Assembly (NCBI GenBank): GCA_021792095.1
Contig: JAJYVH010000001.1
Coordinates: forward strand, 125,974-189,973
Direction of reading: 5' to 3'
DNA length: 64,000 bases
From: Candidatus Micrarchaeota archaeon
Lineage (GTDB): Archaea; Micrarchaeota; Micrarchaeia; Micrarchaeales; CABMGC01
Shown here in pieces: positions 1 through 40,386 of the stretch. The position numbers and the translations under genes are program-made. The notes below the pieces were generated by a model. That model did no database searches. It was given only the letters and a program-made list of their open reading frames with translations, and was not told the DNA's origin. The first letter of the stretch is position 1, and every line of letters begins with the position of its first letter.

Positions 1-663
1 CAAGGATATATAACTACCCTAAATGCAGAAAATAACCTTCCGGCTTACACATTAAGCTTCTGGCTCTATCCGACCAGCAGCTCAGAATCCATTTTCCAGA
101 GCTACACTAGCATACCTGGCGCTGCACCTGCCTGTCCTTTTTACTATATAGTAACTAATCCAGTTCATATAGGGTCATGGAACCTGAACTACGCAGGCAA
201 CTGGTACAACTCGTTCACCAGCAACTCAGTAAATTTGAACACTTGGAGCATGCTTACAGTTACGCTTAGCGGGGGCGGACTTGGTACAGGCACCATAACA
301 GTATACATAAACGGTGCGGCTGTGGATACCCTTTCCGCGCAGGAAGTAGCATCGGCAGGATACGGTCCGGATCCGGGTTCAATAATAGGGGTAGGAGGTT
401 CGGGATGCCCTGGCACCGTCGAAGGCGGAGGATTCCAAGGCAACATTGCAAACTTTCAAGCCTACAATACCTCCCTCTCAGCCAACGAAATACAAGCCCT
501 CTACCTTGAGGGCATCGGCGGCGCGCCAATAAAGCTTCAGAATCTTGTTGGATGGTGGCCGCTGAACGGCAACGCCAACGACTACAGCGGCAACGAGAAC
601 AACGGCGTACCCACCAACGTCGTGTACACGAGCAGCTGGACAAATGGTTATACTGCACCTTAA
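1..663 (+). CDS. LamG-like (ConA lectin/glucanase fold) surface protein, 5'-truncated by the window edge; paralog of 34452..35357
   Basis: Frame 1 is open from base 1 (QGYITTLNAENNLPAYTLSFWLYP...). LamG-type motifs TLSFWLY, WSMLTVT, VYING and FQGNIANFQAYNTSLS; C-terminal ALYLEGIGGAP..LQNLVGWWPLNG is shared with the gene at 34452. Confidence 0.85.
   Translation, partial: QGYITTLNAENNLPAYTLSFWLYPTSSSESIFQSYTSIPGAAPACPFYYIVTNPVHIGSWNLNYAGNWYNSFTSNSVNLNTWSMLTVTLSGGGLGTGTITVYINGAAVDTLSAQEVASAGYGPDPGSIIGVGGSGCPGTVEGGGFQGNIANFQAYNTSLSANEIQALYLEGIGGAPIKLQNLVGWWPLNGNANDYSGNENNGVPTNVVYTSSWTNGYTAP
589..633. repeat. 45-bp segment 44/45 identical (inverted orientation) to 34482..34526
   Basis: ggcaacgagaacaacggcgt(a/g)cccaccaacgtcgtgtacacgagc in both LamG gene 3' ends. 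Confidence 0.9.
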
Positions 664-34451: not shown

Positions 34452-35357
34452 TCAAGGCGTAGTGTAACCGCTGGTCCACGAGCTCGTGTACACGACGTTG
34501 GTGGGCACGCCGTTGTTCTCGTTGCCAGAGTAGTCGTTGGCGTCGCCGTTGAGCGGCCACCAGCCGACGAGGTTCTGCAGGTCTATGGGCGCGCCGCCTA
34601 TGCCCTCGAGGTAGAGTGCATTGACCTCAGGTTGAGAAAGGGAGGCATTGTAGATTTGCACATTGGCTATGTACCCTTTATAATATCTAGTGGCTGGGCC
34701 ACCGAAGCCCACATAAAGATTTGTTCCTGAAGGTGTTGCAAGCGCAGCACTCAAATAACCAGATGCACTTTGGTTATTTTCATATCCTCCTATTGTGTTA
34801 GATACACCTCCACTATATGTAACAGCAACAAAATTCCATGTATTATTTGTAACTATCAGCCCTGAATTCCAATCATTCCATCCCTCAAAATAAACATTGT
34901 TAGAATCAGGGTAAATTATTAGGCCAACCCCTTCATCTGTTGTGGACTGTCCGTAAAACACTACTTGTTGGTTACCGTTGGCGTTGTTATTGCCACCGAG
35001 TGGATAAACCCAAGCTACTATCGTGCGTGGAGAATCCCCTATGGGTAGCTGTGTAGGTGCAATCACATTGACTGCTCCATTTGCATTAAAAGACGCCACA
35101 TACTCCGGCAGCTCGCCGTTGCAGACGCCCTCGAGGTTCAGATCGAAAGCGGTGCTAGGCCCGTTTGGCCTGAAGACCTGGCAGGCGCCTGGCGGCGCCT
35201 TTGGTGCGAATGTGGCGCCGTTGAACACGCCCAGCTGGAACAGCGCGCCCAGCACCACCGCTATTATCAGTATTGCCCAGCCGTAGGTCATGAGGTACTC
35301 CATCGCCGACTGCGCTTTAGGTGAAGGCTTCTGGCGCTCCGTCGCTGACTGCAGCAT
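34452..35357 (-). CDS. Pilin-like LamG-domain surface protein with class III signal peptide
   Basis: KAQSAMEYLMTYGWAILIIAVV; LamG motifs TIVAWV, WNFVAVTY, GYIANVQIYNASLS; C-terminus shared with 1..663. Confidence 0.88.
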   Translation of the reverse strand: MLQSATERQKPSPKAQSAMEYLMTYGWAILIIAVVLGALFQLGVFNGATFAPKAPPGACQVFRPNGPSTAFDLNLEGVCNGELPEYVASFNANGAVNVIAPTQLPIGDSPRTIVAWVYPLGGNNNANGNQQVVFYGQSTTDEGVGLIIYPDSNNVYFEGWNDWNSGLIVTNNTWNFVAVTYSGGVSNTIGGYENNQSASGYLSAALATPSGTNLYVGFGGPATRYYKGYIANVQIYNASLSQPEVNALYLEGIGGAPIDLQNLVGWWPLNGDANDYSGNENNGVPTNVVYTSSWTSGYTTP

Positions 35358-35473
35358 TCTGTTGACGCGACCACCCCACATTTACTCCATACCCATACGA
35401 GGAAAAGTTAGATAAAACACATCGTCCTGGGAAGTGTTTTAAGGCTTAACAGAGCATTGCGAACGGCCATTCC

Positions 35474-36317: not shown

Positions 36318-39300
36318 GTGGTGGCGGACAAGGAAGAAGCTTTAGATGAAAGTATCTCTGTTGGGAAGGAGCACAGGGAAGAGGTGGGCCTGCCAAAGGA
36401 GACCCTGGACTTCTTCGAAGGCGACGAGATAAGGGCCAGGGTATTCTACGAGAAGTACGCGCTCAAGGCGGAGGACGGCAGCACGCTCGAGAAGCTGCCT
36501 AGCGAGATGTGGAGCAGGATCGCCAGGGAGATTGCGACCGTGGAGGCCGACGACGCGAAGAGGAGCGAGTGGCGCGACAAGTTCGTGTGGCTCATGGACA
36601 ACTTCAGGTTCGTGCCAGGGGGCAGGATAATGTTCGGCGCCGGCGCCATGAGGAGGGCGACTCTGCTTAACTGTTACGTCATCCCGGTCAAGGAGGACTC
36701 GCTGGAGGCCATATTCGACTGGTGCAAGGAGGCCGCGAGGACGTACAGCCTCGGCGGGGGCGTGGGCACAGACATAAGCGTGCTCAGGCCGAGGCACGCG
36801 CCTGTGAACAACAGCGCACTCTTCTCGAGCGGCGCTGTCTCGTTCATGGAGATAATGAGCGAGACGACGCACACCATAGGCCAGAACGGCAGGCGCGGCG
36901 CTCTGATGATAACGATGAGCGTCGACCATCCCGACATACTGGAGTTCATCAGAGTGAAGCAGAACAGGGACAAGGTCAGGTACGCCAACATTAGCGTCAG
37001 GATAACAGACGAGTTCATGCGGGCCGTGGAGAACGACACCGACTTCACGCTCAGGTACGAGAGCAAGAAGGCGGGCAGGATAGAGAAGGTGGTCAGGGCG
37101 AGGCAGCTCTGGAACGAGCTGATACAGGCGGCGAGGGACTGGGCCGAGCCGGGCCTCATCTTCTGGGACACCATGAAGAAATACTCGCCGAGCGAGTACA
37201 ACGGCATGGAGGTCATAACGACAAATCCGTGCACAACTGGAGACACGCTGGTGCAGACCCCTGACGGCTGGAAGAGGGTAGACACGCTGAAAGCGGGAGA
37301 TGAGGTGGTCACCGCGTACGGCACATCAAGGCCTATATCCGAGATATACGTCCACGAGGACCAGGACGTCTACAGCGTTAAGTTCACTGACGGGGGCGAG
37401 GTCAAGGCGACGAAGGGCCACATCTTCCACACGAGACAGGGCAGGGCCGGCAAGGACAGGTACTGGAACAAGTTCTGGAACGCTGAAAAGCGCCTCTCCG
37501 ACCTTAAGGCAGGGGACATGGTGAGGGTCCAGAGGAGCGTCTCGGTGCCGAACAACCCGGTCGAGACGCACGGAGTGCCCGATAGGGAATACGGGTTCAT
37601 GCTGGGCACGCTTCTGGGCGACGGATGCTACACGCCGAAAATAGTCGCCAGGGGCCATGCGAAGATAGCCTCGGACTACAGGGAGAAAGAGTGGAATGAC
37701 ACGATAATGAGGACCTTCGGGCACTACGCATCGGACAACATAAGCGTCACGAACTCGAGCGGCAACGGCTACTACATACTGCTGCAGAAGCAGGGAACGC
37801 AATTCATACTCGACAAGACGCTCCTGCAACCCGCCAAATCCTTCGAGAAGAGGATACCGATGGAGTACATAAACAGCAACGCCGAGCTGCACAAGGGCCT
37901 GATAGACGGCCTGGTTTCGACTGACGGCAACGTGAACATGAATCCGACGAACCCTGCGCTGAGGATATCCTCAACCAGCATAGGCCTGCTTAACGACGTT
38001 AAGCTGATACTCGCATTCCACGGAATTCACGCGAGAATATACAGGACAAGGCGCATTTCGCACAGGTTAGGGGGCAGGACCATAGAGACGAAACACGAGA
38101 GTACAGTCCTGCACATATACGGGAACGACCTTGCGAGGTTCGCATCCATATTCCCGATAAGCCACCCGGAGAAGCAGGAGCGCCTCTATAGGCTGCGCGA
38201 CATGTCCATAGGCACGTCATCCGACTTCTCGAAGATAAAGTCAATAGACTACCTGGGCAAGGAGACGGTCTACGACATCTACGAAAAGGAAACAGACACA
38301 TGGGTAACGAACGGCTATGTGAGCAGGGGCTGCAGCGAGCAGCCGCTACAGGCATACGGGGCATGCGACTTGGGTAGCCTCAACCTTGCTGCTTTCGTGC
38401 TCGACATGTTCACGGACAACGCGAGGCTGGACTGGGCAAGCCTGGAGAAGGCGACGAGGTATGCGACGCGTTTCCTGGACAACGTGCTGGATTACAATAT
38501 TGGCAAGCACCCGCTCAAGGACCAGGAGGAGTCGGTGAGCAAGAGCAGGCGTATTGGCATAGGCGTTACAGGCCTCGCCGACATGCTGGCTATGCTCAAG
38601 ATAAAGTACGACTCCGACGACGCGCTGGCGTTCGTTGACAAGCTCTTCGAGAAGCTGAAGGAAACTGCATACGACGAGAGCACCGAGATAGCAAAGGAGA
38701 AGGGCCCCTTCGCCCTCTTCGACGCGCAGAAGCACCTCTCGATGCCATTCATACAGAACCTGAACAAGGATCTGCGGAAGAAGATAGAGGACAACGGGCT
38801 CCGCAACGTGGCGATACTCACGATACCGCCGGTGGGCAGCGGTTCGGTGCTAGCCGGGACGAGCAGCGGCATAGAGCCCATTTTCGCTTTCAGCTACACG
38901 CGAAGGAGCGAGTCGCTGAGCAAGGAGTACTTCAAGGTGTACCACCCGCTGGTGATGAAGTACATGAGCATGACGTCGCTAAAGGACGACGCCGAACTGC
39001 CCGATTTCTTCGTGCCCGCGCATAAGATAAACGCAGAGTTCAGGGTGCGCATGCAGTCGGTCATGCAGAAGCACGTGGACAGCGCGATCTCGTCCACGGT
39101 CAACCTGCCGGCCAACGCCGCGGTGGAGGACGTGGGCAACATATACATGCTCGCGTGGAAGGGCAAGTGCAAGGGCATAACTGTGTACAGGGAGGGCTCC
39201 AGGGAGGGCGTGCTCATAACAGAGGAGGAGAAGAAGAAAGAGGAGGCTCCGAAGCCGGCGGTGGCGTGGGACAGGGACAAGACCCAGATACTGATAGGCA

Positions 39301-39788
39301 AGACTGTGAAGCTGCACGTGCAGCAGGACTCGCTGTACGTGACCGCCAACATAGACTCGGAGGGCAACGTCCGCGAGGTGTTCATCAACATGGGCAAGAG
39401 CGGCGGCCAGGAGAAGAGCTACACAGAGGCGATAGGCAGGCTGATAAGCAAGTACCTGCAGCTCAACGGCGACGTCAACGGCGTCATATCCAGCCTGAAG
39501 GGCATAAAGTCCAACGACGCGATAGCGTGGGACAGGGGCATAAAGATGTACAGCGTACCCGACGCCATAGCCAAGGCGCTCGAGATAGTGGTGGGCACTG
39601 CGAACTTCAAGGCGTTCCCGCTCAACGCTCAGGACGGGAAGGAGCAGGGCTCCCAGATGGGCGTCCAGCAGCAGGTCGCAGACACCGCCATAAAGCCGGA
39701 GATGTGCCCTGAGTGCAACGAAATGACGCTTGTTCACGAGAGCGGATGCTACACGTGCAAGAACTGCGGCTACACCAAGTGCGCCTGA
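36318..39788 (+). CDS. nrdJ: Class II (AdoCbl-dependent) ribonucleotide reductase containing an intein
   Basis: FVPGGRI, LLNCYV, GGGVG, RRGALM, NISV, EPG, TNP|C...|CSEQPL, CDLGSLNL, IPPVGS, TSSGIEP, KGITVYR, C-terminal CPEC...C..CG. Confidence 0.96.
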   Translation: MVADKEEALDESISVGKEHREEVGLPKETLDFFEGDEIRARVFYEKYALKAEDGSTLEKLPSEMWSRIAREIATVEADDAKRSEWRDKFVWLMDNFRFVPGGRIMFGAGAMRRATLLNCYVIPVKEDSLEAIFDWCKEAARTYSLGGGVGTDISVLRPRHAPVNNSALFSSGAVSFMEIMSETTHTIGQNGRRGALMITMSVDHPDILEFIRVKQNRDKVRYANISVRITDEFMRAVENDTDFTLRYESKKAGRIEKVVRARQLWNELIQAARDWAEPGLIFWDTMKKYSPSEYNGMEVITTNPCTTGDTLVQTPDGWKRVDTLKAGDEVVTAYGTSRPISEIYVHEDQDVYSVKFTDGGEVKATKGHIFHTRQGRAGKDRYWNKFWNAEKRLSDLKAGDMVRVQRSVSVPNNPVETHGVPDREYGFMLGTLLGDGCYTPKIVARGHAKIASDYREKEWNDTIMRTFGHYASDNISVTNSSGNGYYILLQKQGTQFILDKTLLQPAKSFEKRIPMEYINSNAELHKGLIDGLVSTDGNVNMNPTNPALRISSTSIGLLNDVKLILAFHGIHARIYRTRRISHRLGGRTIETKHESTVLHIYGNDLARFASIFPISHPEKQERLYRLRDMSIGTSSDFSKIKSIDYLGKETVYDIYEKETDTWVTNGYVSRGCSEQPLQAYGACDLGSLNLAAFVLDMFTDNARLDWASLEKATRYATRFLDNVLDYNIGKHPLKDQEESVSKSRRIGIGVTGLADMLAMLKIKYDSDDALAFVDKLFEKLKETAYDESTEIAKEKGPFALFDAQKHLSMPFIQNLNKDLRKKIEDNGLRNVAILTIPPVGSGSVLAGTSSGIEPIFAFSYTRRSESLSKEYFKVYHPLVMKYMSMTSLKDDAELPDFFVPAHKINAEFRVRMQSVMQKHVDSAISSTVNLPANAAVEDVGNIYMLAWKGKCKGITVYREGSREGVLITEEEKKKEEAPKPAVAWDRDKTQILIGKTVKLHVQQDSLYVTANIDSEGNVREVFINMGKSGGQEKSYTEAIGRLISKYLQLNGDVNGVISSLKGIKSNDAIAWDRGIKMYSVPDAIAKALEIVVGTANFKAFPLNAQDGKEQGSQMGVQQQVADTAIKPEMCPECNEMTLVHESGCYTCKNCGYTKCA
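37230..38330 (+). mobile_element. Intein (367 aa) with LAGLIDADG endonuclease in NrdJ; atypical C-terminus S-R-G|C
   Basis: Block A CTTGDTLVQTPDG, block B ATKGHIF, LAGLIDADG motifs LGTLLGDG and LIDGLVSTDG, block F ETVYDI, block G WVTNGYVSRG/C; removal restores TTNP-CSEQPL. Confidence 0.92.
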
Positions 39789-39841: not shown

Positions 39842-40330
39842 CTACCCGCTTACCCTTGCGGCAAGCTGGCCGACTGCGGTCTGCGAGAAGCCTGTGTACG
39901 TGTTGGTGTAGTTTATCAGCAGGTAGCCCTGGAACTCCTGGCCTGGCGAAGCGGAGTACTGGCTGTTGCCCGCCCAGCATTGCGCGCTGAACGTGTAGTT
40001 GGAGCCTATGAGCATGCTTATCTGGTTGCTAGGCGGATTGCTGGGCACGTACATGTGCGCCGCGCTCGTGTTGGTGTTGCAGCCGTAGGCGGTTATGTTT
40101 ATGGTGGAGAGCGTCGCCTGCTCCAGGTTTATCGTGACCACGCCGGAGCTGGCCAGCTCTATGCTGGTGCAGGAGAAGCCGGCCGGCAACACGCACTCAT
40201 TACCGAGCACGCTGCCCGGGCTGAACACGCCGAGCGCGAAGAGGGCTGCGAGCGCGACTGCTATCACCAGTATGGCCCAGCCGTAGGTCACCAGGTACTC
40301 CATGGCAGACTGCTGCCTGAGCTGTCGCAT
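39842..40330 (-). CDS. Pilin-like protein with class III signal peptide
   Basis: RQQSAMEYLVTYGWAILVIAV, nearly the same N-terminus as 34452..35357 but with a short non-LamG C-domain. Confidence 0.85.
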   Translation of the reverse strand: MRQLRQQSAMEYLVTYGWAILVIAVALAALFALGVFSPGSVLGNECVLPAGFSCTSIELASSGVVTINLEQATLSTINITAYGCNTNTSAAHMYVPSNPPSNQISMLIGSNYTFSAQCWAGNSQYSASPGQEFQGYLLINYTNTYTGFSQTAVGQLAARVSG

Positions 40331-40386
40331 GCTACTTATCCTACCTATGTTTTTTTATTACATTAACCCCAAATGGTCTTGATAGC

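Follow-up and report, generated by a model that had tools for sequence, protein, structure and literature searches.

The stretch of DNA considered here, called the window throughout, comprises 64,000 nucleotides (nt; genome positions 125974-189973) of the single-contig genome of a Candidatus Micrarchaeota archaeon (GenBank assembly GCA_021792095.1, contig JAJYVH010000001.1; 771,545 bp, 56.5% GC, labelled G000 in what follows). On its reverse strand lies the focal gene, paralog C of a multigene family, which encodes a pre-pilin-like protein with a LamG domain and consists of two GC-rich constant ends around an AT-rich, hypervariable core. An initial annotation of this DNA had proposed a candidate cassette-exchange system by which such cores are replaced. 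We report here that the gene family is a mosaic, that its ends and cores have discordant histories, and that in relatives of this archaeon recombination breakpoints lie at the borders between the two.

A pre-pilin-like protein with a LamG jelly roll

The focal gene is a single open frame that stays open across each of the two sharp GC transitions, as the initial annotation had stated, and may begin at an ATG at position 35381 as well as at the 35357 named there, a small correction. In its product a match to PF13385 (Laminin_G_3) in Pfam covers residues 112-254 (E 1.7e-13, 51.4 bits against a cut-off of 27.6), and nothing in NCBIfam rises over its cut-offs, a sub-threshold match to TafC reaching 15.9 bits where 410 are needed. 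An AlphaFold2 model built on a 32-sequence family alignment (mean predicted local distance difference test score 78.7, predicted template modelling score 0.78) places in the mature protein a helix at residues 2-27, a poorly defined linker with two cysteines and a beta sandwich at 72-221, followed at the C-end by a helix (227-236) and two strands (248-252 and 269-276). The top Foldseek matches of this model are the LamG module of PAPP-A, pentraxins and laminin G domains (E 5.5e-10 to 1e-7, probability 1.00). With a profile match over its cut-off and a fold match of this kind, the protein is a LamG/concanavalin A-like jelly roll. Going by the length of the Foldseek alignments (210-244 columns), the constant C-end would belong to the jelly roll itself rather than form a domain of its own. 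Judged from its fold, the core may bind a ligand or carbohydrate.

Archaeal type IV pilin-like proteins begin with a short charged leader, which is followed by a conserved residue after the cleavage site (Q at +1 in the DUF361 type) and by some 20 hydrophobic residues. The focal N-terminus reads as a class III signal peptide of this sort, its leader being followed by Q-S-A-M-E-Y-L and then by hydrophobic residues. Most relatives have a short and basic leader (such as M-K-S or M-R-K-S), which stands right before the invariant Q-S-A-M-E-Y-L, the invariant columns of the family alignment being Q1 to L7. The genome also encodes a prepilin peptidase (PF01478 at 240713..241000, 36.4 bits, over the cut-off) and has three matches over the cut-off to PF00437 (T2SSE-type ATPase); neither the peptidase gene nor any of these matches adjoins a family paralog. 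The same class III start was seen ahead of a non-LamG body with no NCBIfam match in a further open reading frame (ORF) of the window (39845-40354, reverse strand), and in two more ORFs elsewhere in the genome (73301-74983 and 450415-451059).

Constant ends around unrelated cores

A six-frame motif scan of G000 yielded seven loci of the family, six of them intact and one broken (Table 1, in which GC3 is the G+C fraction at third codon positions). Amino-acid identity among the paralogs is 0.9-1.0 over the first ~65 and the last ~50 residues and 0.1-0.3 between, and the borders are sharp, at ELPEY and ALY.EGIGG. The near-identity of the last ~55 amino acids of the two window paralogs reported in the initial annotation was confirmed (51 of 55 residues agree), and its match of 44 of 45 nt was reproduced between focal positions 34482..34526 and positions 589..633. 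Over its whole length the focal gene has its nearest paralog in the broken gene G (52% over 233 amino acids). With the whole protein as query, family matches were obtained in all 41 genomes of the order, at 8-57 matches each and often in tandem arrays; this tally takes in one genome (G038) that the sequence comparisons leave out.

Paralog G has an in-frame stop at genome 740225-740227 and is split by an insertion of ~1.3 kb (34% GC, genome 740437-741750) with an 8-bp direct repeat (CTCTCAGG) on both sides and 10-bp inverted ends. The insertion holds only small membrane-protein-like ORFs, and a transposase was not recognised in it by eye.

Table 1. Positions of the focal gene and its parts, of the family paralogs in the genome and of the (AC)n tracts in their leaders.
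Feature	Position	Strand	Details
Focal gene (paralog C), pre-pilin-like LamG protein	window 34452..35381	-	309 amino acids + stop, single open frame
Leader peptide ahead of conserved Q (+1)	window 35313..35381	-	23 amino acids, from sequence
Constant N-end, to ELPEYVA	window 35100..35312	-	predicted hydrophobic pilin helix + two-Cys linker; GC3 0.82
Hypervariable AT-rich LamG core	window 34686..35099	-	GC3 0.28
Semi-conserved last LamG strands (G.IANVQIYN.SLS..E)	window 34620..34685	-	GC3 about 0.5; synonymous sites saturated
Constant C-end, ALYLEGIGG... through last residue	window 34455..34619	-	modelled helix + two strands
Paralog A	genome 95647-96729	+	
Paralog B	genome 125386-126633	+	3' part is window 1..663
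Paralog B, 3' part (core, constant C-end, stop)	window 1..663	+	5'-open frame of 220 amino acids; PF13385 E 2.1e-15
Paralog C (focal)	genome 160428-161354	-	
Paralog D	genome 381600-382547	-	
Paralog E	genome 385748-386887	-	
Paralog F	genome 394676-395626	-	
Paralog G, broken	genome 739709-740224 and 741736-741936	+	
Tract of paralog A	genome 95716-95737		23 nt; on
Tract of paralog D	genome 382534-382547		15 nt; off, stop after 15 codons; intact frame downstream
Tract of paralog E	genome about 386708-386716		9 nt; on; in-frame ATG also after tract
Tract of paralog F	genome 395613-395624		11 nt; off, as D; intact frame downstream
Tract of paralog G	genome 739713-739734		22 nt; off; gene broken elsewhere too

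Ends and cores have separate histories

The initial annotation had expected cores and ends to have different histories, and this is what we found: the ends track the genome lineage, unlike the cores. For 66 of 69 genes the nearest N-end, and for 51 of 69 the nearest C-end, comes from the same genome, the chance expectation being 0.20. Among pairs of genes with non-identical cores, N-end protein identity is 0.88-0.94 within a genome and 0.63-0.88 between genomes, and lineage-specific amino-acid variants of the ends are common to paralogs whose cores are unrelated. Since the constant ends follow the genome lineage in this way, they appear to evolve in concert. The cores are related in eight of the 571 within-genome pairs, all of them in a single genome (G032), all 100% identical and none intermediate.

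At the nucleotide level the focal N-end is 0.79-0.90 identical to those of its paralogs over 225 nt (up to 0.92 over 207 nt), with third-position identities among the paralogs of 0.55-0.78. The proportion of synonymous differences (pS, by the Nei-Gojobori method) in G000 is 0.24-0.61 for the N-end and 0.25-0.62 for the C-end, against a saturated 0.69-0.87 for the core. Within narrower sets of pairs it is 0.24-0.33 for the N-end (pairs among C, E and F) and 0.25-0.43 for the C-end (among C, D, E and F). In the semi-conserved stretch of 28 gap-free alignment columns (263-290) just before the C-end, the non-synonymous proportion is 0.20-0.42 and pS 0.67-0.95 in all 15 pairs. The exact runs shared between paralogs reach 71 nt for C and D (at the 3' end), 66 nt for D and E and for D and F (in the leader) and 56 nt for B and D. 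A younger age of the ends is insecure for paralogs A, B and D, because the GC3 bias of the ends lowers the level at which synonymous sites saturate. Young ends are clear for the C/E/F/G subgroup only, and the claim for all paralogs is weakened.

Recombinants at the end/core borders

The most direct traces of recombination come from two relatives. In an array of G032, the gene at 592470-593345 shares 100% identity with the gene to its right over a stretch that starts 120 nt upstream and takes in the entire core, and 40-83% thereafter; its last ~240 nt (C-end and 3' flank) are 100% identical to its left neighbour, whose core is unrelated (27-60%). Such a chimera would be the expected product of a recent unequal crossing-over inside the constant C-end. 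In a second pair of genes of that genome (602672/603609) the N-end, starting at its first codon, and the core are identical throughout, and the sequences upstream and downstream differ. Beside the chimeric gene stand four family genes with identical cores and a period of 1974 nt (C1:583640-590410), a very recent tandem amplification.

The second relative, G021, belongs to the same taxonomic family as G000 (f1), and one of its cores shares 79% protein identity with a core of G032, which belongs to another family (f3). The ends of the G021 gene are of the f1 type, with an N-end identity of 0.85-0.87 to f1 genomes compared with 0.66 to G032, and the alignment of the two genes shows a higher similarity in the core than in the "conserved" ends. 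In sliding windows its GC3 is 0.40-0.80 in the N-end and 0.73-0.88 in the C-end, and falls to 0.13-0.47 in the core, which resembles that of G032. As a single case, and provisionally, the gene matches the model put forward in the initial annotation. Core exchange by recombination between conserved flanks is therefore supported as an evolutionary process by the border breakpoints in G032 and G021; for the focal core itself no donor was found in the collections searched.

It might be argued that no recombination is needed, and that the family has evolved by vertical birth and death only, its ends being kept by purifying selection and codon bias and its cores diverging in place under diversifying selection and AT-biased mutation. 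The third-position identity of the ends is merely 0.55-0.82, as this account would have it, and the GC3 bias can explain much of their apparent youth; whole-gene tandem duplicates also exist (the four identical copies in G032), and a donor of the focal core was not found. Divergence in place would nonetheless be hard to square with the bimodal identity of the cores, in which intermediates are missing, with a G032 chimera whose 100% match passes from one neighbour to the other at the core/C-end border, with a 79% identical core common to two taxonomic families in which the ends match each host lineage, or with end variants that are specific to a lineage and common to paralogs with unrelated cores. 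We regard a purely vertical history as unlikely.

The GC3 step between ends and core

The G+C counts given in the initial annotation are exact (42/60 at 35161..35220, 20/60 at 34801..34860, 39/60 at 34501..34560 and 22/60 at 1..60). In a 90-nt profile the GC content is 0.32-0.34 at 34760-34909, 0.60-0.67 at 34460-34639 and 0.61-0.68 at 35090-35269, and 60-nt stretches with at most 20 G+C make up 1.0% of those in the window. The contrast sits in the codons. The focal GC3 (N-end 0.82, core 0.28, C-end 0.78) compares with 0.74-0.75 expected when the same amino acids are recoded under genome-wide codon usage, and GC at codon positions 1 and 2 is nearly flat (0.49-0.54). Amino-acid composition, which the initial annotation had allowed as a source of the low core GC if GC3 proved host-like, is ruled out by the difference between 0.28 and 0.74-0.75. 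Across 655 ORFs of the genome (long ORFs taken by greedy choice, a crude set of which some are probably spurious) GC3 has a mean of 0.73, a standard deviation of 0.13 and a 5th percentile of 0.44.

The architecture noted at first for the two window paralogs extends to all six intact ones, with a GC3 of 0.28-0.61 in the cores and 0.66-0.90 in the ends (for paralog B, 0.45 in the core and 0.66 in the C-end). In sliding windows the constant C-end peaks at 0.79-0.95, and the semi-conserved stretch lies at 0.45-0.54. It also extends to the wider family, for which we used a sample of 92 non-identical genes from 23 genomes, made up of the best match per genome plus chosen arrays and thus not random. 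Core GC3 is below that of both ends in 81 of these genes, between the two in eight and above both in three. The deficit is present even in a genome whose locus has 34% GC: mean GC3 of N-end, core and C-end is 0.36, 0.26 and 0.38 in G032, 0.49, 0.40 and 0.49 in G020, and 0.83, 0.42 and 0.83 in G000. In genomes with at least five sampled genes the mean core GC3 spans 0.26-0.49 and that of the ends 0.36-0.83; over all 23 genomes mean core values span 0.26-0.71, the top ones coming from genomes with one to three genes.

The initial annotation had drawn the cores from a lower-GC gene pool. Such an origin is unproven, and an intrinsic cause fits about as well: cores too divergent to recombine would drift to an AT-rich mutational equilibrium, escaping GC-biased gene conversion or weak selection on GC3, and recombination would lift the ends over the mean of the genome. 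This explanation, which bears on the lower-GC pool and on no other part of our reading, draws on the occurrence of the deficit in 81 of 92 genes across genomes as different in composition as G032, G020 and G000, on the mere three of 92 in which the core is GC-richer than both ends, and on end GC3 values in G000 of 0.8-0.95, above the genome mean of 0.73. The range of core GC3 is nonetheless narrow (0.26-0.49) next to that of the ends (0.36-0.83), and a shared pool would give the same; the low-GC3 genes of G000 (69 of 655) are clustered in islands, as is typical of acquired DNA; and the AT-rich core of the G021 gene sits inside GC-richer ends and has its nearest relative in the 34% GC locus. 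We would place the intrinsic explanation a little short of even chances. By eye, the low-GC3 islands, which include genome 77906-84707, contain glycosyltransferases and restriction/defence genes, and one contains mevalonate-pathway-like genes.

The focal locus and the search for a core donor

At the site of the focal gene no family gene is present in four relatives (G001, G007, G009 and G002), in which a PRC-barrel-like gene meets an RNase HII-like gene across a short spacer (names by eye). The closest species, G008, is the sole one of these five genomes with a family gene at the locus, in the same orientation, next to an RNase HII that is 94% identical in protein and with a flank that is 90.4% identical over 949 nt. 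Its N-end has 85.6% nucleotide identity to that of the focal gene; the leader and the 48 core residues that precede the end of the contig are unalignable, and these 48 residues have no match in G000. The core at the orthologous locus of a close relative thus differs, where the initial annotation had named a shared core as the observation that would speak against exchange.

No target-site duplication was seen by eye at the focal insertion. The opening codons of the N-end recur in the focal leader as a degenerate, in-frame repeat (Q-S-A-T-E, 35337..35351) that lies 39 nt before them. By hand count, 13 of its 15 nt agree with those of Q-S-A-M-E, and this part of the leader is 33 nt longer in G000 than in G008. 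The repeat is a likely recombination scar, left by an imprecise event.

The focal core has no evident source in the collections searched. In 40 relatives its best matches have 46% and 43% amino-acid identity; among 5.8 billion proteins it retrieved itself alone; and among 1.84 billion representatives the best match had an E value of 3.5e-25 at 32% identity, with none at E <= 1e-30. For D, E and F, which make up half of the six intact paralogs, a search of five congeneric genomes, one of them 71% complete, gave no core match at E <= 1e-8.

Unlikely alternatives: programmed exchange and retroelements

In the pilE/pilS system of Neisseria, a variable block of the pilin that lies between constant regions is replaced by homologous recombination that uses conserved sequence. 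A comparable programmed exchange, in which stored copies rewrite an expression locus within the cell at high frequency, would account for a variable block with constant flanks and for the exact runs of 56-71 nt between some paralogs, and the broken paralog G could serve as a store. Our six-frame motif scan showed no silent donor cassettes, the seven loci having their own leader and N-end, with the 3' piece of G in addition; promoterless cassette arrays are absent from G000, the ends have diverged (0.28-1.3 synonymous substitutions per site), and the focal core has no second copy in the genome.

The public sequencing runs that contain this DNA, nine from three studies and all available as Logan contigs, bear on the same point; we examined X1, X6, X7 and X9, leaving out of account joints at 85% likeness, which stem from other family members or organisms. 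The cores of D and F are found as identical contigs of 676 and 709 nt in X1, a possible source run, and in X7, which comes from a different study, and the depth of these contigs is close to that of their flanks (14.1 and 15.6 against 15.4-16.2 in X1; 8.4 and 6.3 against 7.0-9.2 in X7). With core contigs alike and depths near those of the flanks, the data fit cores that are stable within the population. They argue weakly against frequent core switching. All of the Logan contigs end within the constant ends, and none joins a core to its unique flanks.

The resemblance to pilE/pilS lies in the constant regions around an exchanged variable block. The archaeal family differs in that there are no silent cassettes, the copies are full genes, and the ends are 77-93% rather than nearly 100% identical; exchange would also take place between species and within arrays rather than within a clone, and the block is roughly a whole domain. 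With no silent cassettes, ends of 77-93% identity, no donor of the focal core, and D and F cores unchanged across two studies, an active cassette-exchange system is not supported, and programmed switching is in our view very unlikely.

Diversity-generating retroelements (DGRs) occur in some DPANN archaea, and targeted hypermutation by such an element would be another route to diverse cores. A PF00078 search for reverse transcriptase gave no match in the single-contig genome (93% complete), the control genomes being matched, and a template-like second copy of the core is absent from the genome. The initial annotation had held that no DGR is needed, which the missing reverse transcriptase bears out. 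With neither a reverse transcriptase nor a template repeat in the assembled genome, we reject a DGR as the source of core diversity, an extremely improbable explanation.

(AC)n tracts in the leaders

The leader is long in paralogs A, D, E, F and G: its ATG is followed by an (AC)n tract, which in all five lies outside the window, with the cleavage motif 40-70 nt further on. The genome contains five dinucleotide repeats of at least six units, and four of these are leader tracts of the family. In D and F, whose tracts leave the gene out of frame, no in-frame ATG, GTG or TTG occurs between the tract and the Q, and D and E share 66 identical nt that reach into the tract. A scan of species-representative genomes revealed (AC)6 or longer, 38-68 nt before signal-peptide codons, at 18 loci in six other assemblies, five labelled Micrarchaeota and one Marsarchaeota; the tracts are 15-31 nt long, and six loci are on and 12 off. 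One family gene of another genus has an (AG)7 tract instead.

With their mixture of on and off frames, these leader tracts are candidates for phase variation by strand slippage. The Logan contigs list no indel at the tracts, one contig only, from a possible source run, being shown to cross a tract, and a pattern scan of metagenomes for the D/E leader with a variable tract gave 0 matches. Papers on phase variation through repeats in archaea did not turn up in our literature searches, and a 2025 review names archaea as a future direction only.

A long reading frame in the window

Elsewhere in the window, on the forward strand at 36318-39788, lies a ribonucleotide-reductase-like ORF of 1156 amino acids, which is unusually long and, judged by eye, may hold an intein.

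Discussion

We consider it reasonably probable that the family constitutes a modular adhesin repertoire, whose cores change places through recombination in the constant ends, on an evolutionary time scale and not by programmed switching. The focal gene would then be one member of a multigene, modular pre-pilin adhesin family spread across an order of Micrarchaeota. Its predicted protein plan comprises a class III-type signal peptide and a hydrophobic assembly helix, a two-Cys linker and a LamG/pentraxin-like jelly roll, the central part of which is hypervariable and the last helix and two strands of which would be constant. The cores seem to be old, mutually unrelated modules, AT-rich at synonymous sites, and homologous recombination in the constant ends may move them among genes, loci and lineages. 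Such recombination would take in gene conversion and unequal crossing-over, so that it could also duplicate and delete genes, and its time scale would be evolutionary, ranging from exchanges between species down to recent events within arrays. Fast variation is probably a separate matter, to be sought in (AC)n slippage in the translated leaders of some paralogs.

Several observations weigh against this reading. In Pfam, PF13385 is the sole match of the focal protein at E <= 0.1, so that no curated class III signal or pilin profile backs its N-terminus. The clearest recombinants sit in other genomes, G032 and G021, and no exchange event is demonstrated for the focal gene, because neither a donor nor a close relative of its core is present in the collections searched. 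The ends in G000 are 77-93% identical, and in a control for codon bias the codons of identical residues in these ends, which would be expected to differ in 0.41-0.54 of cases at saturation, differ in 0.33 on average (0.17-0.48). One gene of G009 is, moreover, as near to the N-ends of G000 as these are to each other.

Genes for LamG-like jelly rolls have been reported as expanded in the micrarchaeon Mia14 and as generally abundant in other DPANN archaea, where they are partly tied to type IV pilus loci and genomic islands and a role in host interaction has been proposed (PMC5498576, PMC7414124). The pre-pilin N-end, the mosaic of constant ends and variable core, the GC3 contrast, the recombination at the borders and the leader repeats are undescribed in the portions of those reports available to us. 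Our literature searches on LamG in DPANN archaea returned general mentions only, and a paper on a Micrarchaeota pilin was not found.

A closer parallel in protein plan is PilC of Streptococcus sanguinis, in which, according to the accessible part of its description, a class 3 signal peptide and a short pilin moiety precede a glycan-binding jelly roll of the ConA/LamG superfamily, modelled at the pilus tip (PMC9934059). As in PilC, the archaeal proteins have a signal peptide and pilin part fused to a jelly roll. PilC differs in being bacterial and encoded by a single gene, in having an extra Ig-like (immunoglobulin-like) module and, as far as that description goes, in lacking a multigene repertoire and core shuffling (PMC9934059). 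For the archaeal family, lectin activity, a location at the pilus tip and a function in host recognition are putative. It may be that the family proteins are assembled into pili, that their cores bind host surface glycans, and that selection for host recognition keeps the cores diverse.

The leader tracts, for their part, recall the contingency loci of bacteria, which in the accessible part of the literature are described as repeat tracts just after the start codon of surface-adhesin genes (PMC11868660). The likeness extends to the several loci per genome, to tract lengths that vary between copies and to the mixture of on and off frames. Unlike the bacterial loci, these tracts belong to an archaeal host, and the (AC)n lies in a long translated leader that is putatively cleaved by prepilin peptidase. 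We therefore put forward, tentatively and as something possible rather than probable, a surface variation of Micrarchaeota in two tiers, in which slow exchange of cores between genes and taxonomic families, within a repertoire that may reach dozens of LamG-pilin adhesins per genome (8-57 matches in those searched), would be combined with fast on/off switching of individual paralogs by (AC)n leaders, as in bacterial pathogens.

The question of how DPANN archaea recognise and attach to their hosts has so far drawn no more than general suggestions that LamG proteins may be involved. The present family makes the question testable, as it would pair a constant assembly module with a swappable binding module of extreme diversity, and it provides sequence evidence for the movement of modules between lineages. 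The GC3 step inside single genes constitutes a natural experiment on recombination versus foreign origin in archaeal base composition. If the leaders do switch, phase variation would reach a third domain of life, and a setting that is environmental and not clinical; to judge from our literature searches, Archaea would then have their first described case of phase variation through repeats. Should the two-tier reading prove true, the choice and change of hosts by DPANN symbionts could be approached directly through it.

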